Made by a program: the position numbers and the translations under genes. Positions 353-25,702 of a DNA stretch of 29,066 nucleotides are shown here, in pieces (position 1 is the first letter of the stretch; every line of letters starts with the position of its first letter). The stretch spans positions 1-29,066 of the IMG/VR virus record IMGVR_UViG_3300038336_000027. The stretch is one strand, 5' to 3'. Below the pieces are notes generated by a model, which saw only the letters and a list, made by a program, of their open reading frames with translations, did no database searches and was not told the DNA's origin. This DNA is from a virus. Lineage: Duplodnaviria; Caudoviricetes.

Positions 353-1060
353 TCACATGTTCACCAGTATACAGCGGACGCGGCCGACGATGCGCAGGTC
401 GTTGAGGCGCGCGCCGGTGATCATCTCGGGCGGGATGGTGCCGCCATCGGAGATGATGACGATCGAGGTGGGCGTGCCGCCGGGGCCGATGGCGACGGGC
501 ACGAGGCGCTTCACGAAGGCTTCGCCATCACGGCTGAAGGCATAGACCCCCTCGCGATCGAGGCGGGCCTCGGCGGTGTTGACGAGGGCCAGCGCGCCGT
601 CTGGAAGGGTGGGGGCCATACTGTCGCCGCGCACCCGCACAAGCCCCGCATGGGCCGGGTTGATCTGGTTGCGCGATAACCAGACCCTTGAAAACGCGAG
701 TCTTTCCTCGACATGCTCATGATCCGGCACAAGGCCGGGGCCAGCCGAGAGGTTGACCTCGTACCGGGGGATCAGGGCGAAGTCCTGGTCGAAGTCAGGC
801 GCGGGCTCGTCGGGTGGCGAAATGGGTTGCGGCGCGCCCGTGGGTGCGCCCTGGCCGGTTGCCAGCCACTGCACCGACACGCCTAACGCAACGGCTGCCG
901 CAACAAGATTGGAGAGCGTCGGTTCGCTTGCGCCGCGCCTCCAGTCGTTCACGGTGGAACTCGCGACACCAATCGCTCGCCCAAGTGACGCGCCGCTAGT
1001 CTTGGGCGGCCTCTCCATTATCGACGTCAATCGACCGGGAAATCCTTGGTCAGAGTTCAT
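353..1060 (-). CDS. Phage repressor, XRE HTH + peptidase S24 (CI/LexA-like), 235 aa
   Basis: HTH LGRAIGVASSTVNDWRRG; Ala-Gly site LSAGPG; catalytic GDSM and VKRL; divergent from ner. Start chosen at MNSDQ (1060) because the longer ORF runs through the operator/promoter region. Confidence 0.92.
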   Translation of the reverse strand: MNSDQGFPGRLTSIMERPPKTSGASLGRAIGVASSTVNDWRRGASEPTLSNLVAAAVALGVSVQWLATGQGAPTGAPQPISPPDEPAPDFDQDFALIPRYEVNLSAGPGLVPDHEHVEERLAFSRVWLSRNQINPAHAGLVRVRGDSMAPTLPDGALALVNTAEARLDREGVYAFSRDGEAFVKRLVPVAIGPGGTPTSIVIISDGGTIPPEMITGARLNDLRIVGRVRCILVNM

Positions 1061-1180
1061 ACCCTCAACTCTGACCGTAGTGAAAACCGTCAGAAAGGCG
1101 GTCAGAGTTCCAATAAGGCAATGATATGCAAGCGGTTTCCTGTGAAGCGCCCGCAAAAGCTGCAGCTTTAAACTCTGACC
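1048..1180. promoter_or_regulatory. Operator/enhancer repeats GGTCAGAGTT / AACTCTGACC
   Basis: Exact 10-mer at 1048-1057 and 1100-1109, its reverse complement at 1067-1076 and 1171-1180; degenerate copies near 1088 and 1222. Confidence 0.8.
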
Positions 1181-1193
1181 GAGCTTTTTCCCT

Positions 1194-1222
1194 TTGACAT
1201 CGTAGGGAAAACACTTCAATGT
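1194..1222 (+). promoter_or_regulatory. Early promoter (Pe-like), sigma70 type
   Basis: TTGACA (1194-1199), 17 bp spacer, CAATGT (1217-1222), upstream of ner. Confidence 0.65.
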
Positions 1223-1309
1223 CTGTCCGTAAGGTCATTTTTTACACCGCGTGATTTGCCCGCCCGGATGGCCGTCCGAAGGGGCAAGCTGAAAGAGGAG
1301 CACAGGCTC

Positions 1310-1630
1310 ATGCCGAGACCTGCACGGATCACCCGCAAGGCGCGCGGATGGCATCCAGAAGAGATCAAGGCCGCGATCCGCATGAAGGGATCGTCGATGG
1401 CCGAGCTCTCGCGCCAGCATGGCTACGGGATCAGCGCAGTCCGTCAGGTGCTGCGCCGCCCATGGCCCGCCATCGAGCGGCTGGTGGCCGATCACCTGGG
1501 CGTCGAGCCGCAGGAAATCTGGCCCGACCGCTATGGCGAGGACGGGATGCCGAACCGTCTGCTGTTCGGGCGCGTCAAGTTTAACCCGGATCGCACAGAC
1601 TGTCAGCGTCAAAAAGCGTCGGGGGAATGA
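1310..1630 (+). CDS. ner: Ner/Nlp-family transcriptional regulator
   Basis: GWHPEEIKAAIRMKGSSMAELSR...RRPWPAIERLVADHLGVEPQEIWPDRY signature; GAGGAG RBS; first early gene. Confidence 0.93.
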   Translation: MPRPARITRKARGWHPEEIKAAIRMKGSSMAELSRQHGYGISAVRQVLRRPWPAIERLVADHLGVEPQEIWPDRYGEDGMPNRLLFGRVKFNPDRTDCQRQKASGE

Positions 1631-1890
1631 ACATGGCCCCGGACAAGATCATGCACTTCCTGGGCGGGACGGCGATTGCCGCGCTGACCACGCTGGGGTT
1701 CACTTGGGCGGGGTTCGTGCCATCGACCTCGCTCCTGTTCGGCGCGCTTGCAGCGGCGCTGGCGGGCGCGGTCAAGGAGGGCCTTGACGCGCTGGGGTTC
1801 GGGCAGGTCGAGCTTGCCGATTTAACCTGGACCCTGGCAGGCGCGATCCCGGTCGGGCTGCTGATGATCGTGATGCTGGTGCTGGCATGA
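1627..1890 (+). CDS. Small membrane protein, VanZ/YfiM-like motif
   Basis: DKIMHF...KE..D...DL motif with three hydrophobic segments; ATGA overlap with ner. Confidence 0.65.
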   Translation: MNMAPDKIMHFLGGTAIAALTTLGFTWAGFVPSTSLLFGALAAALAGAVKEGLDALGFGQVELADLTWTLAGAIPVGLLMIVMLVLA

Positions 1891-2082
1891 GCGCCGCCCC
1901 TTCCCCTGATTTCAGCACCATGTCCCGCGCGGAACTGACCGCCTGGAAGGGTGCGATCGATGCCGCCATCGCCGCTGCAGAAGCTGCGGGGGGGGGGTGA
2001 CGATTTCGACGTTGCGATGCTGGCCGATGACGAGGGCGTGTCGGTCACTTTCACCATCCCCCTGTCGCCCTCTCAATCCTGA
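1887..2082 (+). pseudogene. Small hypothetical gene frameshifted at a G10 tract
   Basis: The ATG at 1887 overlaps the upstream stop. As given the ORF stops at 2000; removing one G from 1988-1997 gives 64 aa ending at the TGA abutting the HU RBS. Confidence 0.6.
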
Positions 2083-2093
2083 AAGGAAAGACC

Positions 2094-2369
2094 ATGAAGC
2101 GGATCAACAAGGCCGAGCTGGCCGAGACGATGGCCGGGGCCGCCGGGATCACGAAGGCCGAGGCCGGGCGCGCGATCGACGCCTTTGCCCGCGCCGTGAC
2201 GGCGGCGACCGAGCAGGGCGACAGTGTGGTGATGCAGGGGTTCGGAACCTTTGCGCCGCGCCACCGCGCCGCCCGGACGGGGCGCAACCCGGCCACCGGC
2301 GAGACCATCGAGATCGCCGCCAGCACCACGTTGGGCTTCAAGCCCGCCAAGCGCAAGGCGGGATCGTGA
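2094..2369 (+). CDS. hup: HU/IHF-family DNA-binding protein
   Basis: NKAEL...GFGTF...RAARTGRNPATGETIEI...FKP; AAGGA RBS. Confidence 0.95.
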   Translation: MKRINKAELAETMAGAAGITKAEAGRAIDAFARAVTAATEQGDSVVMQGFGTFAPRHRAARTGRNPATGETIEIAASTTLGFKPAKRKAGS

Positions 2370-2791
2370 TGGCCACGGGCAAGCGCATCCCGGCCGCAGA
2401 GATCCGGCGCGTCTGGCTGGATGAGCGGCTGACCACGGCGCAGGCCGCCGAGGCGGTCGGGCTGGCGCGGTCAAACCTATGGCTTCGCGCCAGGGCGCTG
2501 GGGCTGCCACCCCGCAAGAACGGGCGGCGGTTTGAAATCACCGATCTGGCGCTCTTTGAACGGATGTGGCGCGCGGGCGTCCACGGCCCGACGATGGCAG
2601 CGTATTTCGAGGTCACCTATTCGGCGGTGCGCGCAACAGCGCGCCGCCACCGCCTGCCCCCGCGCCCACTGGGCACCCGGCCCAAGGTCTCGCTCCATGA
2701 CTTCCTGCAGATGGAGCTGGGCGCGCGCATGGGTGCCTCGGCCGCGCGGTCGAATGCGCAGCTGCGCGAGAAGCAAAGGGAGGTGGCGTGA
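2369..2791 (+). CDS. Hypothetical DNA-binding protein with two GcrA-like HTH repeats
   Basis: Two units W...A....(G/E)(L/V)...(L/V)...AR...LPPR; TGATG coupling to HU. Confidence 0.65.
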   Translation: MATGKRIPAAEIRRVWLDERLTTAQAAEAVGLARSNLWLRARALGLPPRKNGRRFEITDLALFERMWRAGVHGPTMAAYFEVTYSAVRATARRHRLPPRPLGTRPKVSLHDFLQMELGARMGASAARSNAQLREKQREVA

Positions 2792-3360
2792 TGGTGGGCC
2801 GTGCATTCAACGACCCCGATGGCGGGCGCGCGTGGAACAAGGAGCGCGCTGACATGATCCGCGCGGCGAAGCCGGTTCGGCCTGATATGGCCCAGATGGA
2901 CAGCGAGGAGGGTCGCGACCGAATGGACCTCTTGATGCTGCGCGCTCGGCGCGCGGTGCGTGAGCGGCGGCGGAATTCTCCTCTCCCCGCTTCGCGCAAT
3001 TTCACCTGGCGCGATGCGTCTCGAATGGAGATCCCGGAATATCTTATCCGACAGGCTCTCCGCTCCATTGGTCGAGCATTCGCGTGGTTAGCAGGTCCTC
3101 TGCTGAGGGTTGGTCCAGCCATTCATCTGCGACTGACGCAGCATCTCGAACGGCTTGACGATATGGGTATCGATCCGGCTGACCTTTCAGGTCTTGCAGC
3201 CTGGAAGCGATCGACAGCGCTCTGGCTGACGCAATCGCCCAATGACGCGCGGCGAGCCACTCTCGAAGAAACTTCGGACGAGGCGTGGTCTGAGCCCATG
3301 TCCGATCCTTCGACGGGGTCTGCGACAGGATCGTCGACACCCTCGGAGAGAGCGTCATGA
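2788..3360 (+). CDS. Hypothetical protein (3' half overlaps antisense gene)
   Basis: GGAGG RBS; GTGA/ATGA overlaps at both ends; atypical codon use after ~2970. Confidence 0.5.
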   Translation: MMVGRAFNDPDGGRAWNKERADMIRAAKPVRPDMAQMDSEEGRDRMDLLMLRARRAVRERRRNSPLPASRNFTWRDASRMEIPEYLIRQALRSIGRAFAWLAGPLLRVGPAIHLRLTQHLERLDDMGIDPADLSGLAAWKRSTALWLTQSPNDARRATLEETSDEAWSEPMSDPSTGSATGSSTPSERAS

Positions 3361-3487
3361 CGAACAACCACATCTCCTCGGTTGCATTGGCTTCCAGCCA
3401 GGCGCGGTCTGCTTCGAGCTGCTCTTCCGAGATCAGGTCCAGCAGCGCGTCCGCCCGCGCCCGCGCTTCGATTGCATATCTGTCCAC
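3044..3487 (-). CDS. Antisense hypothetical protein (moron), 147 aa
   Basis: GGAGG upstream of GTG at 3487; helical-looking product MDRYAIEARARADALLDLISEEQLEADRAWLE...; the opposite strand shows a Ser-rich shadow. Confidence 0.65.
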   Translation of the reverse strand: MDRYAIEARARADALLDLISEEQLEADRAWLEANATEEMWLFVMTLSPRVSTILSQTPSKDRTWAQTTPRPKFLREWLAARHWAIASARALSIASRLQDLKGQPDRYPYRQAVRDAASVADEWLDQPSAEDLLTTRMLDQWSGEPVG

Positions 3488-3779
3488 GGCATCCCTCCAT
3501 CCGGTTGTTGGCGCTTCCGATGGTAAGGGCCGCCTGGCCGAGCCCCAAGCGCAAAGCGCGCCGGGCCGGTCGGGCGGGGTTCTCCACGCTCCGGCTGCCA
3601 CCGGGATTGCGTGTGAGCCGTCCAGCCCGCGCGCTTCCTCCTCCCTGCGCGCGGGCTGGGGCTGGCTGATCCGGGCCGCCCGGCGGCTGGACGATCACTG
3701 GATCGGGGATCTGATCGGGGCGGTGTGCCTGTTCGGCATGCTCTGGATCGGCCTTGTCGCCGCGATGGTGTTCGAATGA
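3357..3779 (+). CDS. Hypothetical protein with C-terminal TM helix (true start uncertain)
   Basis: C-terminal LDDHWIGDLIGAVCLFGMLWIGLVAAMVFE with good GC3; ATGA overlaps at both ends. Confidence 0.55.
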   Translation: MTNNHISSVALASSQARSASSCSSEIRSSSASARARASIAYLSTASLHPVVGASDGKGRLAEPQAQSAPGRSGGVLHAPAATGIACEPSSPRASSSLRAGWGWLIRAARRLDDHWIGDLIGAVCLFGMLWIGLVAAMVFE

Positions 3780-3973
3780 AGCCCGCCAGCCCCTTTGATG
3801 CGCACAGCGCACCTGCGCGGCCCGAGGGTCGGCAGGGCGAAGGGGCTGGCACCCATACGGCGCAGGGTGCGCACAGCGCCCGGTTCCCGGTCGAGGTGAC
3901 CGAGATCGGCCTGCAATATGTGATCCCCGGCTGCGAGCGGCGCTCGCCCCCCCCCGTATGTTCAAGGAGGTAA
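3776..3973 (+). CDS. Small hypothetical protein containing a C9 tract
   Basis: ATGA-coupled start; ...TEIGLQYVIPGCERR...; C9 at 3947-3955. Confidence 0.5.
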   Translation: MKPASPFDAHSAPARPEGRQGEGAGTHTAQGAHSARFPVEVTEIGLQYVIPGCERRSPPPVCSRR

Positions 3974-3976
3974 GCG

Positions 3977-4459
3977 ATGAGCAGACGTAGAGCGCATCGC
4001 GGCGGCCGGGATGATCGCCAGATGTCCTTTGACGAGTATTTCGTGGTCCCAACACCCACCGAGGTGCGGCCGGGATCGATTGCCGGGCTTGATGTCGAGC
4101 TGCGCCAGGCGCTGAGCCGCAGCCTGAAGGACCAGCCGCTGTCGCGCTACGAGGTGGCCGCGAAGATGAGCGAGATGCTGGGCGACGATATTTCCAAGAA
4201 CATGCTGGATGCCTACACGGCCGAGAGCCGCGAGACGCATCAGATTTCCGTGGTGCGGCTGGTCGCGATGATCCTGGCCACGCGCGATTATGACCTGCTG
4301 GCGCTGGTGGCCGAGAAGATCGGCTGCCGGTTGCTGGTTGGCGAAGAGGCCGTCGCGGCCGAGGTGGGCTTCATCGACCAGGAGATCGAGGAACTGCGCG
4401 CCCGGCGCGCCGAGCTCAAGCGGCTGCACCCGGTCAAGTTGCGGGGGGCGCGGTCATGA
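3977..4459 (+). CDS. Conserved Mu-like phage protein upstream of transposase (putative DNA-binding regulator)
   Basis: AAGGAGG RBS; SRYEVAAKMSEMLGDDISKNMLDAYTAESRE HTH-like motif plus C-terminal coiled coil; coupled to A. Confidence 0.75.
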   Translation: MSRRRAHRGGRDDRQMSFDEYFVVPTPTEVRPGSIAGLDVELRQALSRSLKDQPLSRYEVAAKMSEMLGDDISKNMLDAYTAESRETHQISVVRLVAMILATRDYDLLALVAEKIGCRLLVGEEAVAAEVGFIDQEIEELRARRAELKRLHPVKLRGARS

Positions 4460-6468
4460 TCGAATGGCGCACCGCAGCGGACTGGGCCGAGCAGGGCTTG
4501 CCGCAGGTCCCGACAACTGAGAGCGGCGTTATTCGTCGCGCCAAACGCGATAGCTGGCAGGACCGGGAGCGCAAGGGCTTCGGCGGCGGCTTCGAGTACC
4601 ATTATTCCAGCCTGCCCGACCGGGCGCGCGCGGCCTATCTGCTGCGCCATCGCAAGCCCGATCCGGCCAGCCTGCCCGTGCAGGTGCCGCAGGACGAGGC
4701 CTGGGCGGGGTATGAGCGGCTGTCGGAGGCGCTGCGCCAGGAGGCGGCGTTCCGCCTGAAGGTGCTGACGGCGGTCGAGGTCATGGCCGAGAGCGGCGTG
4801 GGCCGGGTGTCGGCGGTCGAGATGGTGGCCGAGGATGCTGAAGTGAGTGCGGCCACGATCCGGCGCTGGCAGCGACTGGTCAAGGGCGTCGAGCGGCGCA
4901 ACTGGCTGCCCGCGCTGGCCCCGCGCTATGTCGGCAAGGTCGAGCGCGCCGAATGCGATCCGCGTGCCTGGGACTGGTATCTGGGCCAGTATCTGACCCG
5001 GCGCGGCCCGAGCCATGCCGATACCTATCGCCGCCTGGAAGAGATTGCCGCGATCGAGGGTTGGGTGATCCCCAGCGCCAAGACTATGGAACGCCGGGTC
5101 GAGACCGATATCGACGCGCTGACCATCGTCTTGATGCGCGAAGGCATGGAGGCGCTGGCCCGCCGCATGCCCAAGCAGCGCCGCGACGAGACGGTCTTTG
5201 CCGCAGGCGAGGCCGTGAACGGCGATGGCCTGAAGTTTGACAAGCTGTGGGTGAAGTTCCCCGATGGCGAGATCATCAATACCGCCACCGCCTGGTTCTT
5301 TCAGGATCTGCGCACGCGGCGCATTCTGGCCTGGCGTCTGGGCAAGACAGAAAACACCGATCTGTTCCGTCTGGCGACCTATGACCTGACGGCGGTCTGC
5401 GCGCCGACGATCATGTACATCGACAATACCCGCGTGGCCGCGAACAAGCTGATGACCACCGGAGCCAAGAACCGGCATCGGTTCAAGGATGACAAGGGTG
5501 ACGGCGTCGGCCTGCTGGTCGCACTGGGGATCGACCCGCGCTTTACCAATCCTGACAAGGAGACCGGCAACCCCGGTGCCAAGCCGATCGAGCGCGCCTT
5601 CGGCATCGGCGGCATCCACGACAAGGTTGCCACCCACCCGTCGCTGATCAACCGGGGCTACAGCAAGGCCACCGCGATCAACTCGGACGAGCTGCGCGAT
5701 GTGATCGAGCATGAGATCGCGCGCCACAATGCGCAGGCCAAGCGCCGCACCACCGCCTGCCGGGGCCTGCTGAGTTTCGATCAGGCATGGGAAGAGGCGA
5801 CCGCCAGCATCACCTTCCGCCGCTTCTCCGAGCGGCAGCGCCGCCTTCTCCTGATGGTGCGCGAGGTGGTGACGGTCACCCAGAACGGCGAGATCGCGAT
5901 CAATGCCGGGCGCGGCGCGCATACAAAGAACCGCTACTGGTGCGAGGCCGCCGCCGCGCTGGCGGGCCGCAAGGTGGTTGCGCATTTCGACCCCGAGAAC
6001 CTGCACGCCGGGGTGCATGTCTACAGCCTGGACGGGCGCTACCTGTTCGAGACCGACCACATGACCAGCATCGCCTTCAACGACAGTGGCTCCGGTCGCG
6101 AGTGGAGTAAGAACCGCGCGCGCATGATCAAGGCCACCAAGAAGCAGGCCGAGGCTGCCACCCGCATGTCGAAGCTGGAGCGCGAGGAGCTTTACGGCAA
6201 GGCCGTGCGCGCCCGCGCCGACGAGGCGGCGGATCACCCACCCGCCGCCCCCGACAGCACCGTGGTTGCGGCACATTTCCGGCAGATGCCGGATCCGGCC
6301 CGCGATGCGGTGCGCGCCGATCCGCCCCCCGGTGTGATCGACTTTACCGCCATGGCCGCGCGCCAACGCCCGGCCGCGCTGGCGGGCGATGAAGACGAGC
6401 AAGCAGAGTTCATGAAGCGGGCGCTGGCGGGCCTTCGGGTTCGCAACGGGCTGCCCCCGGCTGAATGA
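4456..6468 (+). CDS. Mu-like DDE transposase A
   Basis: N-terminal Mu HTH (GLPQVPTTESGVIRRAKR..W..RERKGFGGGFEYH), second HTH, DDE motifs NGDG / YIDN / KPIERAF, Mu C-terminal domain HFDPENL. Confidence 0.96.
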   Translation: MIEWRTAADWAEQGLPQVPTTESGVIRRAKRDSWQDRERKGFGGGFEYHYSSLPDRARAAYLLRHRKPDPASLPVQVPQDEAWAGYERLSEALRQEAAFRLKVLTAVEVMAESGVGRVSAVEMVAEDAEVSAATIRRWQRLVKGVERRNWLPALAPRYVGKVERAECDPRAWDWYLGQYLTRRGPSHADTYRRLEEIAAIEGWVIPSAKTMERRVETDIDALTIVLMREGMEALARRMPKQRRDETVFAAGEAVNGDGLKFDKLWVKFPDGEIINTATAWFFQDLRTRRILAWRLGKTENTDLFRLATYDLTAVCAPTIMYIDNTRVAANKLMTTGAKNRHRFKDDKGDGVGLLVALGIDPRFTNPDKETGNPGAKPIERAFGIGGIHDKVATHPSLINRGYSKATAINSDELRDVIEHEIARHNAQAKRRTTACRGLLSFDQAWEEATASITFRRFSERQRRLLLMVREVVTVTQNGEIAINAGRGAHTKNRYWCEAAAALAGRKVVAHFDPENLHAGVHVYSLDGRYLFETDHMTSIAFNDSGSGREWSKNRARMIKATKKQAEAATRMSKLEREELYGKAVRARADEAADHPPAAPDSTVVAAHFRQMPDPARDAVRADPPPGVIDFTAMAARQRPAALAGDEDEQAEFMKRALAGLRVRNGLPPAE

Positions 6469-6471
6469 AGA

Positions 6472-6501
6472 CGGCCGGTGGTGCGCCACACCAACCGGCC
6501 G
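6472..6501. other. Intergenic stem-loop between A and B
   Basis: CGGCCGGT-GGTG / CACC-A-ACCGGCCG with a 5-nt loop; no U-tract on +. Confidence 0.5.
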
Positions 6502-6537
6502 AACCCCTGAAACAGGCAAAACAGGAGACAGACCAGA

Positions 6538-7515
6538 ATGACCCAGAACGCACAGATTGTCCAGATCGCTGAGGATACGGACGAGGATTACGTCGCCCAC
6601 CGCCTGCCGTTGCGCGACCGCATGCGCAGCCAGATGACCCGTGACGGGCTGTCGCAGGCCGCCACCGCCCGTGAGATCGGCATATCGGCCTCGGCGCTGA
6701 ACCAGTGGCTGCAGGGAAAGTATGCAGGCAGCAATGACGAGGTCGAGGCGCGAATCGATACCTGGCTGGCTGCGCGCGAGCGCCGTGATGCGGCATCAAG
6801 CGCCATGCCGACCCAGCCCGAGTTCTTCCGCTCGCCCTCAACCGAGAAGGTGATCAACGCGCTGAGCTATGCGCAGACGGCGGGTGACATCGTCTGCATC
6901 TATGGCAACCCCGGTGTCGGCAAGACCAAGTCGTTCCGGCATTACCGCGATACCAACCCTTCGGTCTGGATCGCCACCATGTCGCCTGACAGTGCGGGCC
7001 TTGTGCCCTGCCTTGAAGAGGTGGCCGAGGCGGTCGGGCTGCGCGATGCCGGGGGTGGGGCGCGCCGTATCGCCCGCGCCATCCGCCGCAAGGTCGAGGG
7101 CACGCGGGGCCTTTTGATCATCGACGAGGCGCAGCATCTGTCCACCGCCGCGCTGGAGGAGCTGCGCATCGCCATTCATGACGCGACCGGCATTGGCCTG
7201 GTGTTCGCGGGTAACCCGGAGGTCTATTCGCGGCTGACCGGCGGCAACCGCTCGATGCGCTTTGCCCAGATCTTCAGCCGGATCGGTATGCGCCTGTTCA
7301 TCCCTCGCCCGACCGTGGGTGATGTGCGTGCGCTGGCCGCCGCCTGGGGCGTAAAGGGCGCACCCGAGGTCGAGCTCTTGAAAGAGGTCGCGGCCGAGCC
7401 GGGTGCGCTGCGCGGAGCCAGCAAGGTGCTGGCACTCGCCGCGATGGCCAGTGACAGCCAGATCACGCTGGCAGCCCTGCGCCAGGCGCGCATCAACCTT
7501 GGCGGGCAGGAGTGA
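6538..7515 (+). CDS. MuB-like transposition AAA ATPase
   Basis: N-terminal HTH, Walker A GNPGVGKT, Walker B LLIIDEAQ, SRIG arginine finger; AGGAG RBS. Confidence 0.96.
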   Translation: MTQNAQIVQIAEDTDEDYVAHRLPLRDRMRSQMTRDGLSQAATAREIGISASALNQWLQGKYAGSNDEVEARIDTWLAARERRDAASSAMPTQPEFFRSPSTEKVINALSYAQTAGDIVCIYGNPGVGKTKSFRHYRDTNPSVWIATMSPDSAGLVPCLEEVAEAVGLRDAGGGARRIARAIRRKVEGTRGLLIIDEAQHLSTAALEELRIAIHDATGIGLVFAGNPEVYSRLTGGNRSMRFAQIFSRIGMRLFIPRPTVGDVRALAAAWGVKGAPEVELLKEVAAEPGALRGASKVLALAAMASDSQITLAALRQARINLGGQE

Positions 7516-7793
7516 TGGCGATGCTGTCTGAAGAAATCCGCAGTGTCGTGGCCAGCCTTGCCGGACAGATCGACAAGGGCGCGGTCAGCGCCGAGACCGC
7601 CGCCCGCGCCCGCGACATCCTGCGCGATGTGGCCGACCGCGTGGAGCTGATCGAGGGGCTGATCGTCCCCGACCACATGACCCTGCCCGATGACTGCCCG
7701 CCTGCGCGCAACGTGGTTCGGCTGGACCCGTGGCGCAAGCGGCTGGCGGCTATTGCCCGCCCGTCATCCCAATCCCCCTCAACCCCCGCGTAA
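7515..7793 (+). CDS. Hypothetical protein
   Basis: TGATG coupling, AGGAG RBS, high GC3. Confidence 0.7.
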   Translation: MAMLSEEIRSVVASLAGQIDKGAVSAETAARARDILRDVADRVELIEGLIVPDHMTLPDDCPPARNVVRLDPWRKRLAAIARPSSQSPSTPA

Positions 7794-7826
7794 CCGGCCT
7801 TTGAGCCGCATTTCAAGGAGAGACCC

Positions 7827-8492
7827 GTGAACCAGCAACAGGATATCACCCCCGAGGCCCCCACTGACGGCGTCATCGAGCTGCAGGGCGAGAAGTACAT
7901 GCGCGACACCGGCGGCCGTCTGGTGCCGATCGACGCGATCAAGCCCGAAGATCTGCTGATGGACGAGACCACGCGCAAGATCTGCGCCTTTGCCGAGGAC
8001 CTGTCGGCGCGCATCAGCCGCTTCCGGGGTCACACCTTCGACGACATCGCCACCACGGTGGACCTGATGACCGAGAAGTATGGCCGCCGTCTGGGCGGCG
8101 CGAAGGGCAATGTCACGCTCACCAGCTTTGACGGCACCCTGCAGGTCAAGGTGCAGGTGCAGGACCAGATCACCTTCGGCCCCGAGCTGCAGGCTGCCAA
8201 GGAGCTGGTCGATATCTGCATCTCGCGCTGGTCGGAAGGGTCCAACGCGCAGGTCCGTACCCTGATCCAGCACGCCTTCCAGGTGGACAAGGAGGGGCGG
8301 ATCAACCGCTCGGCCCTGTTCCAGCTGCGCCGCATGCGGGTCGAGGATGGCGACCCGGAGTGGCGCGCCGCGATGGATGCCCTGTCGGATGCGATCCGCG
8401 TGATCGGGTCCAAGGAATACGTCCGCTTCTACCGCCGCGACAATCCCCGCGCCCGCTGGGAGCCGATCACCATCGATCTGGCAAGCGCCTGA
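7827..8492 (+). CDS. DUF3164-family protein
   Basis: YMRDTGGRLVP, GGAKGNVTLTSFDG, FGPELQAAKELVD, AFQVDKEG, SKEYVRFY; AAGGAG RBS. Confidence 0.9.
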   Translation: MNQQQDITPEAPTDGVIELQGEKYMRDTGGRLVPIDAIKPEDLLMDETTRKICAFAEDLSARISRFRGHTFDDIATTVDLMTEKYGRRLGGAKGNVTLTSFDGTLQVKVQVQDQITFGPELQAAKELVDICISRWSEGSNAQVRTLIQHAFQVDKEGRINRSALFQLRRMRVEDGDPEWRAAMDALSDAIRVIGSKEYVRFYRRDNPRARWEPITIDLASA

Positions 8493-8518
8493 TCACCCCA
8501 CCAAGCAGGAGAGACACG

Positions 8519-9706
8519 ATGACCATCAGTGAGATTGAACTGCGCCGCGAGCTTCTGGACAAGGCGCTGGCAAGCGCGAAGCTGCCCGAGGCGATCGAGT
8601 ATGCGCATGACATGTGGCGCTTTGTCAGCGGGCAGGATGCCGCGCTGGTCTACGGGCCGACCGGCCTGCCCGCGAACTGGATGGACGGGGCCACCCCGGT
8701 CCCGGAGGCCGAGGTTGCCCGGCTGTTTCGCGATGCCAGCATCGTGGGCATTGCCCTGGACGAGAGCGGCAACTGGCGGCGGGTTGATGCGGCGGGCCGC
8801 ACGCTGGATGCGTTCGACTTTGACACCCACCCGATCTGGGGTGGCCTGCGCGACATCATCACCGATGAGGGTCTGCACCTGGTGGAGATCCCGAAGTTCT
8901 GGGTTCGCTTCGAGGCGCGCGGTGACGAGCGCCTGTGGTGGGTCAGCCCGCGCGCCCGCGAGGGGTTCGACCTGCACCCGGCCTTCCTTGCCGCCGATGG
9001 ACGCGCCGTGGCGGTGCTGCGGGTGGCCAAGTATCTCGCGACCGACAAGGAGGGCAAGATCGGTGTGGCCGCAGGGCAGACGCCCTGGACCTCGATCACG
9101 ATCGACGAGGCGCGGCGCAAATGCGAGGCGCTCGGCCAGGGCTGGCGCATGTGGTCGGTCTATGACCAGGCGGCGATCCAGTTGCTGGCGCTGATCGAGA
9201 TGGGCACCCCGGACATGCAGGACGCCATTGCGCGCGGCAATGTCGATGGCGCTGGCGCGAAGCCCACCGGCAGCACCGGGGCCGCCTGGCGGGGCATCCA
9301 TGATCTGTGGGGAAACGTCTGGCAGTTCGTCGACGGGTTGCGGATCAGCGCAGGCGGGGTGATCGAGGTCTGGCATGACCTGCTGCCCGGCCCGGACGCC
9401 TGGGTAAACACCGGCGTGGCCTATGGGCCGGGCAAGGATGACGGCTTTCCAACCGATCTGCACATGGAGCGCGACCGGGGCTTCAACCTGTCGCTTCTGT
9501 TCCTGCCCTCCGAGGTGTCTGACGATCGCGAGGATGCGATCATCCCGGACTATGTCTGGGGGCGCTGGCAGGACCGCGAGACGATCGCCATCCGTGGGGG
9601 CAGCTGGAACAGCGGCGCGAACGCCGGGGGCTTCGCCCTCGACCTGGGCCACGCGCGTTCGAGCGCGAACACGAGCCTCGGCTTCCGGCCCGCTTTCGGG
9701 TTCTGA
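8519..9706 (+). CDS. C-type-lectin/FGE-sulfatase-fold protein, DGR target-like (Mtd-like C-terminus), 395 aa
   Basis: VEIPKFW...GFDLHPAF, RGIHDLWGNVWQFVDG, C-terminal RGGSWNSGANAGGFALDLGHARSSANTSLGFRPAF; AGGAG RBS before ATG 8519. Confidence 0.85.
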   Translation: MTISEIELRRELLDKALASAKLPEAIEYAHDMWRFVSGQDAALVYGPTGLPANWMDGATPVPEAEVARLFRDASIVGIALDESGNWRRVDAAGRTLDAFDFDTHPIWGGLRDIITDEGLHLVEIPKFWVRFEARGDERLWWVSPRAREGFDLHPAFLAADGRAVAVLRVAKYLATDKEGKIGVAAGQTPWTSITIDEARRKCEALGQGWRMWSVYDQAAIQLLALIEMGTPDMQDAIARGNVDGAGAKPTGSTGAAWRGIHDLWGNVWQFVDGLRISAGGVIEVWHDLLPGPDAWVNTGVAYGPGKDDGFPTDLHMERDRGFNLSLLFLPSEVSDDREDAIIPDYVWGRWQDRETIAIRGGSWNSGANAGGFALDLGHARSSANTSLGFRPAFGF

Positions 9707-9751
9707 CATCTGACCCCCTGCACTCTGGCGGCCTGCCGAAAGGCGGGCCGC
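9584..9751 (+). other. Putative DGR variable repeat + IMH-like segment + GAAA hairpin
   Basis: AAC or AAC-derived NNC codons at the variable positions; GC-rich GGCTTCCGGCCCGC; TCTGACATCTGACCCCCTG; hairpin GCGGCCTGCC-GAAA-GGCGGGCCGC (9728-9751). Confidence 0.7.
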
Positions 9752-9757
9752 ACCACC

Positions 9758-9815
9758 GGCGAAACCGCATCGCGGTCTGTGGGGCAAGGGCACCCCCGCA
9801 CTGATGAGCCAGCCC
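9758..9815 (+). ncRNA. Type II hammerhead ribozyme with pseudoknot
   Basis: GGC-GAAA-CCGC(ATC)GCGG-TC^-TGTGGGG(CAAGGGCAC)CCCCGCA-CTGATGA-GCC-A-GCCC. All core nucleotides and three stems are present, plus loop I GGGC : 3' GCCC pairing. Confidence 0.9.
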
Positions 9816-9834
9816 GAGACAGGAGATGGGAGAC

Positions 9835-10026
9835 ATGGACCAACTGATCCACCCGGCAGGGGCCGTCATGCTGGCCGCGTTTGCGGCGGCAGTCGTGGTG
9901 TTCGGCGCGACCATCTGGGCCGGGCGCTTTGGCCCGCCGCGCTGCTACAGCTGGATGCTGTCGGGGCTTGCCGCCGGTGTTCTGGTGTTTGCCCTGGTGA
10001 TCGTCGGCGCGCTGGTGCTGGCATGA
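9835..10026 (+). CDS. Small two-TM membrane protein
   Basis: AGGAG 9 nt upstream; two hydrophobic helices; ATGA overlap with gemA. Confidence 0.7.
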   Translation: MDQLIHPAGAVMLAAFAAAVVVFGATIWAGRFGPPRCYSWMLSGLAAGVLVFALVIVGALVLA

Positions 10027-10469
10027 GCAACGCGATCAAGGCCATTCACGCAAGCCGCCGCCAGGTGCCGGGGCTTGAGGATGACGAAACGTGGCGTGAC
10101 TTCCTGCAGCAGATCACCGGCGAGCGGTCGATCCGCGCAATGCCCGAGCCCGTCCGCGCGAAGGTGCTGGATGCGCTGCGCGATCGCGGCGCGAAGGGCG
10201 GCAATGGTGCGCGCAGTTTCAGACCCTCGGACAAGCCGCATGTGCGCAAGGTCTTTGCGATCTGGGGGGCGATGTGCCGCGCCGGGATCCCCGACAATGC
10301 CACGCGCGCCGGACTGCGCGCTTTCGTGGCCAGGATGACCGCCTCGGCCGAGCGGCCCGAGGGCGTGGGTAATCCCGAATGGCTGACCCCCGAGGATGCC
10401 CGCAAGGTGACCGAGGCGCTGAAGGCATGGGAGCGCCGCGCGCTGGCCAAGCGGGGGGCTTCCAGATGA
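10023..10469 (+). CDS. gemA: GemA (Mu gp16, DUF1018) family protein
   Basis: IKAIHASRRQVPGLEDDETWRDFLQQITGERS...KVFAIW...LRAFVARMT...WLTPEDARKVTEALKAW. Confidence 0.9.
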   Translation: MSNAIKAIHASRRQVPGLEDDETWRDFLQQITGERSIRAMPEPVRAKVLDALRDRGAKGGNGARSFRPSDKPHVRKVFAIWGAMCRAGIPDNATRAGLRAFVARMTASAERPEGVGNPEWLTPEDARKVTEALKAWERRALAKRGASR

Positions 10470-10714
10470 CCCGCCGCAAGAGCCGGTCCTATCGGATCAG
10501 GATCGAGGCCGATGCCTTTGAGCGCCTCGCCGCCACCCTGATCGAGGATCACAGCACCCGGCTGGCGGAGGGCTGGACGATCTGTCCGACCTCCGGGCTG
10601 TGGCGCACCAACAGCGGAACGCTGACGGCGCGCATCGCCTATCGGCTGCGCGCACGCGGCGCGACCGTGGTGCACACCATCCGGGGGATCAATCCGGGTG
10701 TGCGCAATGGGTGA
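10466..10714 (+). CDS. Hypothetical protein
   Basis: ATGA-coupled to gemA; overlaps the next start. Confidence 0.65.
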   Translation: MTRRKSRSYRIRIEADAFERLAATLIEDHSTRLAEGWTICPTSGLWRTNSGTLTARIAYRLRARGATVVHTIRGINPGVRNG

Positions 10715-11150
10715 GCTGCGCCCCGATCCCTTCGACGGCCTGCCCCCGACCCTGCGTCAGGTGGCGGAGGTTGCCGGGGTCGAGGCGGCTGCGCGGCTGG
10801 CGCGCGATCATGGGGGCACCGAGATCTACATCCGGCGCACCCTCGACATGGAGCATGTCCTGGTCAAGTCGGTCGGCATGGAGGCGGCAGCCTCGATCCT
10901 TGAGCGCTTTGGCCCCGGCGCGCTGGAGGTGCCGCTCTGGCTGAGCGGGCGCGGCCAGCAGCTGGCCCGGCGCATCATGGAGATGCTGGACGAGGGGCGC
11001 TCGGAGGCGAAGATCGCGCGCGCCCTGCACTGCCATATCAGGACCGTGCGGCGCTACCGCGCGCGCAGCCCTTCGGCGCAGATGGACCTGTTCGAGCACT
11101 TCGATCTTGAAGAGAAGTCTTGCGCTGACGACGATTTTGACGAAAGCTGA
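10707..11150 (+). CDS. Mor/C-family late transcription activator
   Basis: LPPTLRQVAEVAGVEAAARLARDHGGTEIYI plus C-terminal HTH; last gene before the lysis cassette. Confidence 0.82.
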   Translation: MGELRPDPFDGLPPTLRQVAEVAGVEAAARLARDHGGTEIYIRRTLDMEHVLVKSVGMEAAASILERFGPGALEVPLWLSGRGQQLARRIMEMLDEGRSEAKIARALHCHIRTVRRYRARSPSAQMDLFEHFDLEEKSCADDDFDES

Positions 11151-11169
11151 ACCAAGGCGGGGCATGGCA

Positions 11170-11185
11170 GGACATCTGTCCGGGT
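11170..11185 (+). promoter_or_regulatory. Late-promoter activator site 1
   Basis: GGACA-TC-TGTCC-GGGT palindrome, 15/16 identical to 18367-18382. Confidence 0.72.
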
Positions 11186-11248
11186 CGGAACCGACCGCCG
11201 CGCGATGACAAGGTGACCGGGTGCGCAACAGCAGCGGTTGACCCTGTC

Positions 11249-12022
11249 ATGAATATCTTCGACATCCAGAAGCACCTGAAGGCACTCGGCCATGATCCGG
11301 GGCCGATCGATGGCGTCTGGGGGTCACGCACCCGCGCCGCCCTCTTCTCTCTGCTCTATGTGCTGCGCGCCGTGGCAGTGCAGGGCGCTGCCAGCTGGAA
11401 CGTGGTGCGGCTGCGCCTTGCGGCCGAGCAGGCGATCCTTGCCGCCAACGGCTTTGACCCCGGCCCGATCGACGGGCTGGACGGGCCGCGCACACAGGCC
11501 GCCCGCCAGCAGTTCACCGCCCGCCCCGATGCCCGGCTTGCCGAGGCGGTGGCGTCAACGTCGAGCGTGATCCGCCAGGGCAAGGCCGGGCACCCCGTCA
11601 ACGAGATCATCATCCATTGCGCCGCAACCCGCCCGAACTGGATGGACCGCCAGCCTCTGCGCGAGCAGATTGCAGAGATCCGCACCTGGCACCGTGAGCG
11701 CGGCTGGCGCGACATTGGCTATCACTGGATCATCGGGCGCGACGGATCGATGCTGCCGGGCCGTCCCGAGACCGAGATCGGCGCGCATGTCGCGGGGCAC
11801 AACAGCGGCACGATCGGCATCTGCCTGATCGGCGGCTTCGGCAGCGCCACCACGGATCGCTTCTCGGATCACTTCACCGCGCAGCAGGGCATCACGCTGG
11901 AGCAACAGATCCAGGCGATCTCGATGCGCACGCCGATCACCCGGATCAGCGGGCACAACGAGTATGCCGCCAAGGCCTGCCCCGGCTTCAATGTCGCCCG
12001 CTGGCTTGAGGGGTATCAGTGA
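11249..12022 (+). CDS. Endolysin: two PG-binding domains + Amidase_2 (T7-lysozyme-like)
   Basis: GHDPGPIDGVWGSRT, GFDPGPIDGLDGPRT; IIIHCAAT, DIGYHW, GAHVAGHN, GHNEYAAKACP. Confidence 0.95.
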   Translation: MNIFDIQKHLKALGHDPGPIDGVWGSRTRAALFSLLYVLRAVAVQGAASWNVVRLRLAAEQAILAANGFDPGPIDGLDGPRTQAARQQFTARPDARLAEAVASTSSVIRQGKAGHPVNEIIIHCAATRPNWMDRQPLREQIAEIRTWHRERGWRDIGYHWIIGRDGSMLPGRPETEIGAHVAGHNSGTIGICLIGGFGSATTDRFSDHFTAQQGITLEQQIQAISMRTPITRISGHNEYAAKACPGFNVARWLEGYQ

Positions 12023-12279
12023 TGGCCAATTCACCACTTCCACCCCTGCCCGCCTGGCATGCGCGCTCGTTCTACGCCCAGCTGCTGCTGGTCGCGACGG
12101 TCCTTGCGCATGTTCTGGGCGTCGATTTCGACGGCCTGCTGGCAGGGATGGGGCTGACCGCGCCGGATCAGCTGATCGATCTGGCCATGACAATCATGCC
12201 CTGGCTGTTTGGTCTCTGGGCGTGGCTGGAGCGCCGCGCACCAAAGTACCAGCTGGTGTTTCGGAAGGTCTGGGCATGA
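12022..12279 (+). CDS. Putative holin
   Basis: Two TM helices, basic C-terminus, between endolysin and spanins. Confidence 0.65.
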   Translation: MANSPLPPLPAWHARSFYAQLLLVATVLAHVLGVDFDGLLAGMGLTAPDQLIDLAMTIMPWLFGLWAWLERRAPKYQLVFRKVWA

Positions 12280-12536
12280 GCTGGCTGCCCGACATCATCA
12301 CCCTGATCCTCGGGCTGATCGTGGGGATCGGCGGCACCTGGAGGCTGGCAAAAAGCCGGGGCCAGCGCGAGGGCGAAAAGCAGGCAGAAACCAAAGCGGA
12401 GGCCGTGCGTCTTCGCAACTATATCGAGACGAGGGAAAGAATTGATGAAGCTGATCACAAGCCTCTTGATGGTGATGATGCTCGCGACTGGTTGCGCGAC
12501 TTCTCGTCCGGCGGAAGCACCAGGTCCGAGCGGTGA
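12276..12536 (+). CDS. Putative i-spanin (Rz-like)
   Basis: N-terminal TM followed by a charged helical tail. Confidence 0.7.
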   Translation: MSWLPDIITLILGLIVGIGGTWRLAKSRGQREGEKQAETKAEAVRLRNYIETRERIDEADHKPLDGDDARDWLRDFSSGGSTRSER

Positions 12537-12684
12537 GGCCATGTGCCAGGGGCTTGAGCGCTCTGCCCGCAACCATGCCGCAGCGCTCGCCAGTGATGGC
12601 GGGCCTTCCTCCGTCCAGAGTGGCGTTGCCCTGATCAGGGGGCTGGCTGCCGCCTGCATCTACGACCTGGGCCGTTCGGAGTAA
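12445..12684 (+). CDS. Putative o-spanin lipoprotein (Rz1-like)
   Basis: Signal peptide with lipobox LATG|C; starts inside the i-spanin in the +1 frame. Confidence 0.75.
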   Translation: MKLITSLLMVMMLATGCATSRPAEAPGPSGEAMCQGLERSARNHAAALASDGGPSSVQSGVALIRGLAAACIYDLGRSE

Positions 12685-12687
12685 GGC

Positions 12688-13023
12688 ATGGAAGAGTTCG
12701 ATATTGCCTTCATCCTGAAATGGCTGCCGCTTCTGAACGTTGTCGTCATACCGGCCGCCGCCTGGATCATCCGCGCCGCCACCCAGAGCATGGCGACCAA
12801 GGCCGACATCGCCGCGCAGTCGACCGAGCTGGGCAGGCTGGCCCGCCGGGTCGACCTGATGGAGCGCGACCTCAAGCACTTGCCGGATGCCGATGACTTC
12901 GCCGGGCTGAAGGAGCAGATCGCGGCGCTGACCGGCGCGGAGAAGGCCCAGACCCAGCAGCTGGTCGGCCTGTCACAGTCGGTCGCGCGGATCGAGGACT
13001 GGCTTATGAGGGGCGTGAAGTGA
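12688..13023 (+). CDS. DUF2730-family protein (Mu gp25-like)
   Basis: N-terminal TM, coiled coil, KHLP..DD motif, ...IEDWLM; position. Confidence 0.75.
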   Translation: MEEFDIAFILKWLPLLNVVVIPAAAWIIRAATQSMATKADIAAQSTELGRLARRVDLMERDLKHLPDADDFAGLKEQIAALTGAEKAQTQQLVGLSQSVARIEDWLMRGVK

Positions 13024-13325
13024 GCTACAGGGATTTCATCGCGGAACACCGCAGGCTCTTTGCCCTGCAGCTGCTGGCCGAGATCGGCGGCAGCGCCAGC
13101 GAGGACATCGTCTATCAAGGTGTGCGCCAGGGCTTCCGGCCGATCAAGGGCGTGACGCGGGACGTGATCCGCGCCGATCTGGACTGGATGCACAACCGCC
13201 ACCTGCTGAGCTACGAGTGGCTCGACGACACGATGCTGGTGGTCGGGCTGACCGAGCGCGGCGCATATGTCGTGAGTGGCGATGTCGAGGTCGAGGGCGT
13301 CAAGGTCCCGGATGCGCGGAGGTAA
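13020..13325 (+). CDS. Mu gp26-like winged-helix protein
   Basis: EHRRLFALQLL...TRDVIRADLDW...LTERG..V..G...GVKVP. Confidence 0.8.
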   Translation: MSYRDFIAEHRRLFALQLLAEIGGSASEDIVYQGVRQGFRPIKGVTRDVIRADLDWMHNRHLLSYEWLDDTMLVVGLTERGAYVVSGDVEVEGVKVPDARR

Positions 13326-13328
13326 CGC

Positions 13329-13874
13329 ATGGCTCGCCCGTCCACGATCCAGCGCCTTCCCTCTCAGGTCCGCGAAGCCATAGCCGATCTGCGCGGCAAG
13401 GGCCGGACGATCGACGAAATCCTGTCCAAGCTGCGCGAGCTCGATGTCGATGTGTCGCGCTCGGCGCTCGGCCGCCACGTCAAACAGCTCGATGCGATCG
13501 GCAAGGAGATCAGGCGCTCGCGCGAGGTGGCCGAGGCGCTGGTCAAGCAATATGGCGATGCGCCGGAAAGCCGGACGGCGCAGCTCAACATCGAGCTGAT
13601 GCAGGGCCTGGTGACGCGCCTGATGTTCGCCGAGGATGGCGAGCTCGTTTCCTTCGACCCCAAGGACGCGATGATGATGGCGACAGCCCTGCAGAAGCTG
13701 GCGCAGGCCTCCAAGCAGGATGCCGATCGGGTCGTGTTGATCCGCAAGGAGTTCGCCAAGAAGCTCGACGACGCGATCGCGGCCGCCGAAGAGGCGGGCG
13801 AGCGCGGCCTTTCGCCCGAGCGCCTGGCCGAGCTGCGGCGCGGCTTCCTGGGCGTAAGGCGGGCTGGCGAATGA
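13329..13874 (+). CDS. Terminase small subunit (Mu gp27/DUF3486)
   Basis: RPSTIQRLP...SRSALGRH...GLSPE..AELR..FLG. Confidence 0.88.
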   Translation: MARPSTIQRLPSQVREAIADLRGKGRTIDEILSKLRELDVDVSRSALGRHVKQLDAIGKEIRRSREVAEALVKQYGDAPESRTAQLNIELMQGLVTRLMFAEDGELVSFDPKDAMMMATALQKLAQASKQDADRVVLIRKEFAKKLDDAIAAAEEAGERGLSPERLAELRRGFLGVRRAGE

Positions 13875-24717: not shown

Positions 24718-25059
24718 ATGCGCCGCAACTGGGACTGCATCCGCGCCATCCTGGAGGCCTCCGAGGCACTGGAGGATGGCGTGCTGCTGGCTCCCGGCAT
24801 TTTGCCGGGGTTCAGCGAAGACCAGGTGGTCGGGCATATCCGGCTTCTGGAAGAGGCCGGTCTGGTCGAGGGCTATCCCAAAGGCCCCGGCGCAATGTTC
24901 GTGCGTCGCCTGACCTGGAACGGGCACGAGTTCCTGTCGGTGCTGCGTTCAAAGACACTCTGGGCGCGCGTGAAAACCGAAGCGAAGGACCGGGGGCTTG
25001 CGCTCTCGTTCGATCTGGTCAGGGCGCTGGCCAGCAAATTCATCAACGATCTGATCTGA
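24718..25059 (+). CDS. DUF2513-family protein
   Basis: MRRNWDCIRAIL...HI.LL.EAGL...LTWNGHEFL..LRS..LW..VK. Confidence 0.85.
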   Translation: MRRNWDCIRAILEASEALEDGVLLAPGILPGFSEDQVVGHIRLLEEAGLVEGYPKGPGAMFVRRLTWNGHEFLSVLRSKTLWARVKTEAKDRGLALSFDLVRALASKFINDLI

Positions 25060-25378: not shown

Positions 25379-25509
25379 TCACGGTGACGAAATGGTCGGC
25401 GGCCGAGGTGGACGGGATGGAGATCACCGACCTCAACGACTGGATCGAAGAGGCCGTCGATCACGCAAAGGCGGTCAGGAACGCTCGCGAAGCCGCGCAG
25501 TCTTCTTAG
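25342..25509 (+). CDS. -1 frameshift extension of tail chaperone (E+E'/GT-like)
   Basis: In-frame slippery G GGA AAA (25342-25348); -1 frame IPTPRDAFALITVTKWSAAEVDGMEITDLNDWIEEA... to TAG at 25509. Confidence 0.85.
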   Translation, partial: GKIPTPRDAFALITVTKWSAAEVDGMEITDLNDWIEEAVDHAKAVRNAREAAQSS

Positions 25510-25702
25510 CTTCCATCGCAGCGACATCTGCCTTGCCTTGCTCGACGCCCTTGCGGATCCCGTCGCGCGCGGCGGCAACGAGACCGCGCCCGGCCCAGAC
25601 AGAGCCGCGCGCGGTCATGAAGATCGCCTTCACCCCGACATAGGCCAGCCCCAGCAGGGCACCCACACCGAAGAGGACGAAGAACAGCATCAGGATTTCC
25701 AT
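25475..25702 (-). CDS. Antisense small membrane protein (moron)
   Basis: GAGGT RBS, N-terminal TM, basic tail; own promoter. Confidence 0.8.
   Translation of the reverse strand: MEILMLFFVLFGVGALLGLAYVGVKAIFMTARGSVWAGRGLVAAARDGIRKGVEQGKADVAAMEAKKTARLRERS

Follow-up and report, generated by a model that had tools for sequence, protein, structure and literature searches.

The genes and signals around the ribozyme

We analysed a 29,066-nt stretch of phage DNA, referred to as a whole as the window, which terminates within a tape-measure-like gene. The phage is Mu-like, and its genes run in the order repressor, MuA, MuB, DUF3164, a 395-aa gene, ribozyme, a 63-aa hydrophobic ORF, gemA, a Mor/C-like activator, amidase, and head and tail genes (Table 1). 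Its nearest named relatives are found in assemblies of Pseudoruegeria, Actibacterium and Sediminimonas, and one close relative is a prophage of Pseudoruegeria aquimaris CECT 7680. Among annotated phages, the sole match to the window is the diversity-generating retroelement (DGR) region of Vibrio phages VHML and VP58.5, over the variable repeat (VR) in the final 100 nt of the 395-aa gene. gemA and the activator gene lie 250–1400 nt 3′ of the ribozyme, with the lysis amidase gene after the activator. A promoter and terminator scan, which performed at chance level, gave no + strand matches in 900–13500. Farther along, Trp-rich repeats with a period of 165 nt (55 aa) occupy 27500–28460 of the tape-measure-like gene, and a DUF2513 gene and a short reverse-strand ORF lie among the tail genes (24718–25059 and 25475–25702, the latter on the minus strand).

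Table 1. Features at the ribozyme locus, numbered from the first nucleotide of the window
Feature	Position	Strand	Basis
Non-adjacent DGR target gene, 395 aa, early operon between DUF3164 and gemA	8519–9706	+	PHROG 5302 and 2889; PDB 5VF4 profile match
Variable repeat (VR), 3′ end with GC-rich start of IMH	9596–9694	+	Orthologue VR/TR comparison; same-study TR-like contig
IMH-like tail across stop codon	9695–9727	+	Common to both VRs, missing from TR in relatives; IMH label assigned from position (Wu 2018)
GC-rich 10-bp hairpin/cruciform, GAAA loop, DGR target-recognition type	9728–9751	+	DNA fold, −13.5 kcal/mol
Type II hammerhead ribozyme, predicted cut C9777/U9778	9758–9815	+	Rfam match, descriptor, fold, conservation
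Shine-Dalgarno AGGAG	9821–9825	+	Sequence; 9 nt before ATG 9835; purine tract kept in orthologues
63-aa protein, two hydrophobic stretches, likely membrane	9835–10026	+	Hydropathy
gemA	10023–10469	+	PF06252, E 1.7e-24
Mor/C-like transcription activator	10707–11150	+	PHROG 836 'late transcriptional activator', E 2.7e-24; PF08765 weak, below cut-off

The original prediction, which was made from the sequence of this locus, placed a ribosome-binding site behind the ribozyme. The AGGAG is indeed there and leads the membrane gene; the start codon is refined, as ATG 9826 is flush with AGGAG and the usable start is ATG 9835, in agreement with the start position in orthologues. The 63-aa gene is not retained 3′ of the ribozyme in all relatives (another gene is found there in L170–L172); the hairpin, ribozyme and Shine-Dalgarno sequence stay while the gene 3′ of the ribozyme changes.

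What the original prediction overlooked is the 5′ neighbour, a non-adjacent DGR target gene whose hairpin ends 6 nt before the ribozyme. The target protein has no Pfam match. It has a profile match (E 6.4e-13) to PDB 5VF4, labelled 'uncharacterized' in the search output, a Thermus DGR variable protein, and it is likely to have a C-type-lectin fold. Its Atlas neighbour cluster includes 15% FGE-sulfatase, and structure prediction reached a pLDDT of only 39. The N-terminal ~60 residues are retained only in the closest relatives. The hairpin, with 97.8% of cells paired in nine orthologues, fits the 7–10 bp stem and GRNA loop of DGR targets (Guo 2011, PMC3240598).

Diversification of this gene can be followed in related genomes. 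Differences between the early VR and the TR of the same genome fall at TR adenines in 11/11, 10/10, 10/10, 15/15 and 14/14 cases (G001–G004 and G007, respectively). G006 is an exception, with only 7/15 early-VR differences at TR adenines. In this genome (L338, L342), seven non-adenine differences lie in the 5′ quarter of the VR and only one lies beyond, a pattern that might arise from an exchange of the TR and partial rewriting of the VR. Three complete relatives carry two further copies of the VR stretch and an RT ~27 kb away; RT is present in all three relatives searched, and three copies are present in 3/5 further records. The repeats listed for the window include no further copy of the VR, and no RT family is matched there; TR, avd and RT are absent from it, the contig ending in the tape-measure gene. 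The relatives' TRs were considered as the window's own TR and rejected, since they show 8–10 adenine-site and 6–14 other differences. TR-like copies occur on contigs of similar depth in four runs of a single study, three of which may be the window's source, and in three of the four runs a contig spans the tail of the second VR to the TR start; neither kind of contig is physically linked to the window. In run X3, the TR-like copy has A at nine of the ten listed differences (9603, 9612, 9641, 9647, 9648, 9650, 9663, 9675 and 9677). The tenth, at 9630, is non-adenine, with G in the window VR and T in the same-study TR-like and second-VR contigs. The gene at 8519–9706 encodes a DGR-diversified protein in a Mu-like early operon, outside the tail region.

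Sequence, fold and conservation of the hammerhead

At the level of sequence, the element is confirmed as a full type II hammerhead with a loop I/3′-tail pseudoknot. Every segment lies where the original prediction put it: GGC (9758–9760) and GCC (9808–9810) of stem II, GAAA (9761–9764), CCGC (9765–9768) and GCGG (9772–9775) of stem III, U9776, C9777, TGTGGGG (9778–9784) and CCCCGCA (9794–9800) of stem I, CTGATGA (9801–9807), and the 4-bp pseudoknot between GGGC of loop I (9788–9791) and GCCC (9812–9815). The core is complete, with C3 U4 G5 A6 N7 G8 A9 represented by CTGATGA, G12 A13 A14 A15 by GAAA, U16 by U9776 and H17 by C9777. The core-adjacent pairs 10.1–11.1 (G9808–C9760), 1.1–2.1 (U9778–A9800) and A15.1–U16.1 (A9764–U9776) are intact. 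Stem II is open, loops close stems I and III, and no ligand- or protein-binding insertion is visible within these short loops. By analogy with the family, from which we take the chemistry, cleavage after C9777 is likely.

The pseudoknotted type II identity, which was to be checked against Rfam, is borne out at an E-value threshold, where RF02276 matches over 66/66 model positions (9757–9818; 36.8 bits versus a gathering cut-off of 37; E 3.6e-6); the Rfam alignment pairs only 2 bp of stem II. At the gathering threshold, Rfam returns no match of any kind in the window and calls no hammerhead in eight related loci, though two of these carry one. Because this threshold is too insensitive here, we built a model of our own; its training sequences match by construction, and two unseen hammerheads are also detected, at 51 and 40 bits. 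A type II descriptor has one match in the window, both strands considered, and matches 1/500 dinucleotide shuffles at its loosest setting and 0/500 at two stricter ones. For the 58-nt element, the predicted fold of lowest energy is the three-stem one (−19.7 kcal/mol), and in contexts of up to 220 nt it costs 1.2–3.3 kcal/mol relative to the ensemble, with the pseudoknot not counted. Folding energy alone is uninformative (z +1.44 for 9750–9825).

In nine distinct orthologous loci, whose upstream proteins are 47–87% identical, the ribozyme lies 50–51 nt past the target's stop. Invariant columns number 45/46 in the core, stems and pseudoknot, 2/13 in the loops, 2/6 in the linker and 4/28 in the tail. 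This pattern of invariant catalytic positions and drifting loops points to purifying selection on the ribozyme. Stem positions are paired in 153/153 cells, and the core and 4-bp pseudoknot are invariant. No compensatory (two-sided) change is seen among the nine orthologues, because the stems are invariant. In the wider family, represented by 16 sequences hand-picked for similar architecture, two-sided change occurs in 13/18 pairs, and in 4/4 pairs of the pseudoknot. A pseudoknot of at least 4 bp can be drawn in 112/199 hammerheads among the matches listed, compared with a mean of 66 and a maximum of 83 in 500 tail swaps. It could be argued that the element is a chance or inactive look-alike, as it scores 0.2 bit below the Rfam cut-off and 4 of 18 consensus candidates were inactive in earlier work, the other 14 being active (Perreault 2011, PMC3088659). 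Given how rarely shuffled sequences match and how the nine loci are conserved, we regard this as extremely improbable.

Hammerheads and DGR targets across phages

Where do such elements lie in other phages? A pattern scan of viral contigs, covering 11/64 parts, found at least 137 loci (about 790 estimated overall), and the matches listed include at least 199 distinct type II hammerheads in 123/137 loci. Among these matches, the hammerhead starts no more than 12 nt after an upstream stop in 143/195 cases (control, 293/3558, 8%). A Shine-Dalgarno sequence, a start and 30 open codons follow within 45 nt in 154/196 testable hammerheads among the matches listed, compared with 431/3550 random places (12%) and 16/195 antisense places (8%); these controls are random and antisense places rather than other intergenic elements, and in a compact genome some such link is to be expected for any intergenic feature. 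The hammerheads listed occupy intergenic gaps in the sense orientation. Dense arrays also occur, with seventeen type II hammerheads within 7.2 kb, a Shine-Dalgarno sequence and start after each, in L063, and eight inside 5 kb in L366. Among the matches listed, 80 hammerhead loci have long flanks; 23 of these are 3′ of DUF3164, on its strand, without a DGR target match.

The position of the window's ribozyme raises the question of whether it is coupled to the DGR target, either freeing the target message or clearing nascent RNA at the IMH-hairpin, and in this way tuning expression or retrohoming rate. In favor of this, its distance from the target's stop is fixed in nine loci while the downstream gene varies. 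Among 80 DUF3164-anchored Mu-like loci, moreover, hammerhead and DGR target coincide exactly: the same 5 loci have both, and these form one clade, whereas a hammerhead is found in 0/75 of the other loci, which lack the target. However, within the target family only 8/87 loci have a hammerhead, all in the window's group, and no hammerhead is found at any tail-region VR, TR or RT locus. The sister group (G002, L250, L288) has no hammerhead yet differing VRs; in G002, a 100% complete record without a hammerhead, the second VR is adenine-diversified (10/10). The ribozyme is not needed for diversification, as this sister phage without a ribozyme has an adenine-diversified target and tail targets also go without one. 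In L356 (3–500), a close relative of the L170 phage, the same hammerhead stands behind a target that ends in a VR and IMH of another DGR class. In Bordetella, a target remains functional when inverted, and the hairpin is characterised as a structure in DNA (Guo 2011, PMC3240598). A role as a shield against nonsense polarity was also considered and rejected; such protection is unnecessary, since 0/12 adenine-bearing codons of the G001 TR can become a stop. One further locus, L263 (G013), has a distant DGR-type target and hairpin directly before gemA, with no hammerhead, and no RT in its 87% complete record.

A second Mu-like lineage bears on the same question. It comprises 10 loci on 9 contigs, with targets 32–35% identical and hammerheads on both sides of the target. 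An HU-like gene precedes the first hammerhead and a gemA-like gene follows the second, with the target, its VR and its hairpin in between. Both gene names were assigned by eye, the gemA one from the translation, and tblastn found no match for the gemA-like frame. Grouping every target that has a hammerhead into one clade is rejected (p-AU 0.0002; 19 rows, with L262 dropped for lack of an ORF), which argues for coupling. This lineage came from scans that required a hammerhead, however, and is therefore ascertained; in two VR-plus-hammerhead scans, 3/14 and 5/11 loci were not target-plus-hammerhead cases. On balance, we consider coupling to DGR function quite unlikely.

In G010 (L352:251–2630), the DGR target unit is tandemly duplicated and bounded by three hammerheads. 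The middle hammerhead is a hybrid whose 5′ flank is that of the last copy and whose body is that of the first, the product expected from a crossover within the ribozymes. The two VRs differ from the TR at adenines only (10/10 and 14/14). Two Mu-like lineages have an adenine-diversified DGR target in the early operon, outside the tail region. These arrangements suggest a broader possibility, that on at least two occasions Mu-like phages have put self-cleaving ribozymes beside a DGR target of the early operon, giving it a separate message and making it a ribozyme-bounded cassette that recombination can duplicate, with cleavage tuning expression or retrohoming. We think this unlikely; if true, it would mean a functional link between the ribozyme and the diversity-generating retroelement.

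The G010 duplication also lends itself to an explanation in which the ribozyme is a passenger, part of a portable ribozyme-Shine-Dalgarno cassette that serves mainly as a recombination junction for shuffling early-region genes, with cleavage of little consequence. In L250 (3232–3320), L251 and L288, short stretches resembling the 5′ and 3′ ends of the ribozyme adjoin after the hairpin. They may be a remnant of an internal deletion, and hence a tolerated loss, though the resemblance is suggestive only. On the other hand, no more than one strong hammerhead copy is present in the window or in any of four complete relatives, so a recombination partner is lacking, and invariant catalytic positions beside drifting loops speak for selection on cleavage. 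A mere passenger is very unlikely.

Probable transcript punctuation and comparison with known systems

The explanation we favor, with a probability of roughly 65%, is that the intact hammerhead self-cleaves after C9777 and splits the early transcript, serving as gene punctuation rather than as a part of the DGR. The complete and conserved core and stems, the layout seen among the phage hammerheads listed, and the independence from the DGR in G002, L356 and the tail-region loci speak for it. One long early transcript would run from the DGR target gene through gemA and the activator; gene order and the lack of a + strand terminator match are our only grounds for it. The ribozyme would fold during transcription, with the GGGC/GCCC pseudoknot holding the fold, and cutting would be constitutive. 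The upstream piece would end 26 nt beyond the GC-rich DGR hairpin, which could shield its 3′ end. As the original prediction had it, and with the chemistry again borrowed from the family, the cut would leave a 5′-OH RNA heading the 63-aa membrane gene, gemA and the Mor/C-like activator. This downstream piece would carry the hairpin of stem I and, in a 57-nt leader, a Shine-Dalgarno sequence of its own, so that its decay and translation would be decoupled from the upstream genes. A 5′-OH and a 5′ hairpin slow RNA decay; a literature search (RppH, RNase E, RiboJ) found no support for a protective effect of the 5′-OH. The DGR hairpin would act on DNA and the ribozyme on RNA, the two being neighbors because both occupy the variable interval before gemA. 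This shared interval accounts for the pairing, and no functional link is needed. For relatives, 3/4 RNA-labelled runs yield contigs that bridge the cut site, with no ends visible. The runs include contigs of 33–90 kb, with low shares, and probably contain DNA, so the bridging is weak counter-evidence.

It has been suggested, in the original prediction, that cleavage could set late-gene timing; as a regulatory timer, it would act at a fixed moment to activate or stabilise the message for gemA and the activator, and hence the late genes. The proximity of gemA, the activator and then the amidase would suit such a role, as would the second lineage, where the downstream hammerhead is directly 5′ of the gemA-like frame identified by eye. 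However, gemA is present in 69/80 DUF3164 loci and a hammerhead in only 5/80, the short loops offer no obvious place for a ligand or protein to bind, and the Shine-Dalgarno sequence is outside the ribozyme. Cutting is predicted to lower the energy of opening the ribosome site by only 0.3–2.7 kcal/mol; the ribozyme is therefore not a translation switch, and cleavage-gated translation is rejected. With the gene right behind the ribozyme varying, and hammerheads lacking from 75 other Mu-like loci, at least 64 of which include gemA, the timing claim is unsupported. Late timing is possible in that an activator lies downstream, but nothing singles it out; we hold it to be rather unlikely.

The locus is of value as a clean test case of why self-cleaving ribozymes cluster near Mu-like phage genes. 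With one copy per phage, a natural sister without the ribozyme, and a prophage in a named strain, a point mutation can separate punctuation, late timing and DGR coupling. The surroundings add a DGR target that lies in the early operon instead of the tail region in two Mu-like lineages, and a target duplicated in tandem between ribozymes.

For phage DGRs, targets that are not adjacent but lie within 50 kb are known (Wu et al. 2018, PMC5758913). Transposable phages have been shown to carry DGRs, and second VRs have been described (Benler 2018; Roux 2021; a Faecalibacterium prophage paper); a search of Roux 2021 for 'ribozyme' finds no match. The arrangement here is the same as in Wu 2018 and Guo 2011 in that the RT and a second target are no more than 50 kb apart in one prophage, and in having a C-terminal VR, an IMH and a GC-rich stem with a GRNA loop. 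It differs in the location of the target, which is an early operon and not the tail region, and in the ribozyme that comes after the hairpin; the relevant sections of those papers mention none. At the level of titles and abstracts, with subscription papers mostly outside the scope, we found no report pairing a DGR with a self-cleaving ribozyme or hammerhead, and no prior report of a ribozyme behind a DGR target hairpin, as seen here in two lineages.

The ribozyme itself is an ordinary addition to a known family in a known kind of place. Self-cleaving ribozymes were already noted to be enriched near Mu-like phage genes, for an unknown reason (Eckert et al. 2023, PMC10085705, citing earlier work). 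As in that study, the setting is a Mu-like early operon, and many hammerheads lie downstream of DUF3164 in our survey too; the window differs in that the neighbor is a DGR target gene, which the corresponding parts of that paper do not mention. Like RF02276 type II hammerheads (Perreault et al. 2011, PMC3088659), the element has the core consensus, an open stem II, hairpin stems I and III and a 4-bp pseudoknot. It also shares the prophage setting and the proposed processing of long phage transcripts, into gene-length messages in that proposal; three tandem arrangements cleaved in vitro and one in E. coli. It differs from them in its score just under the cut-off, in being a single copy rather than a cluster, and in its place directly behind the signals of a DGR target.
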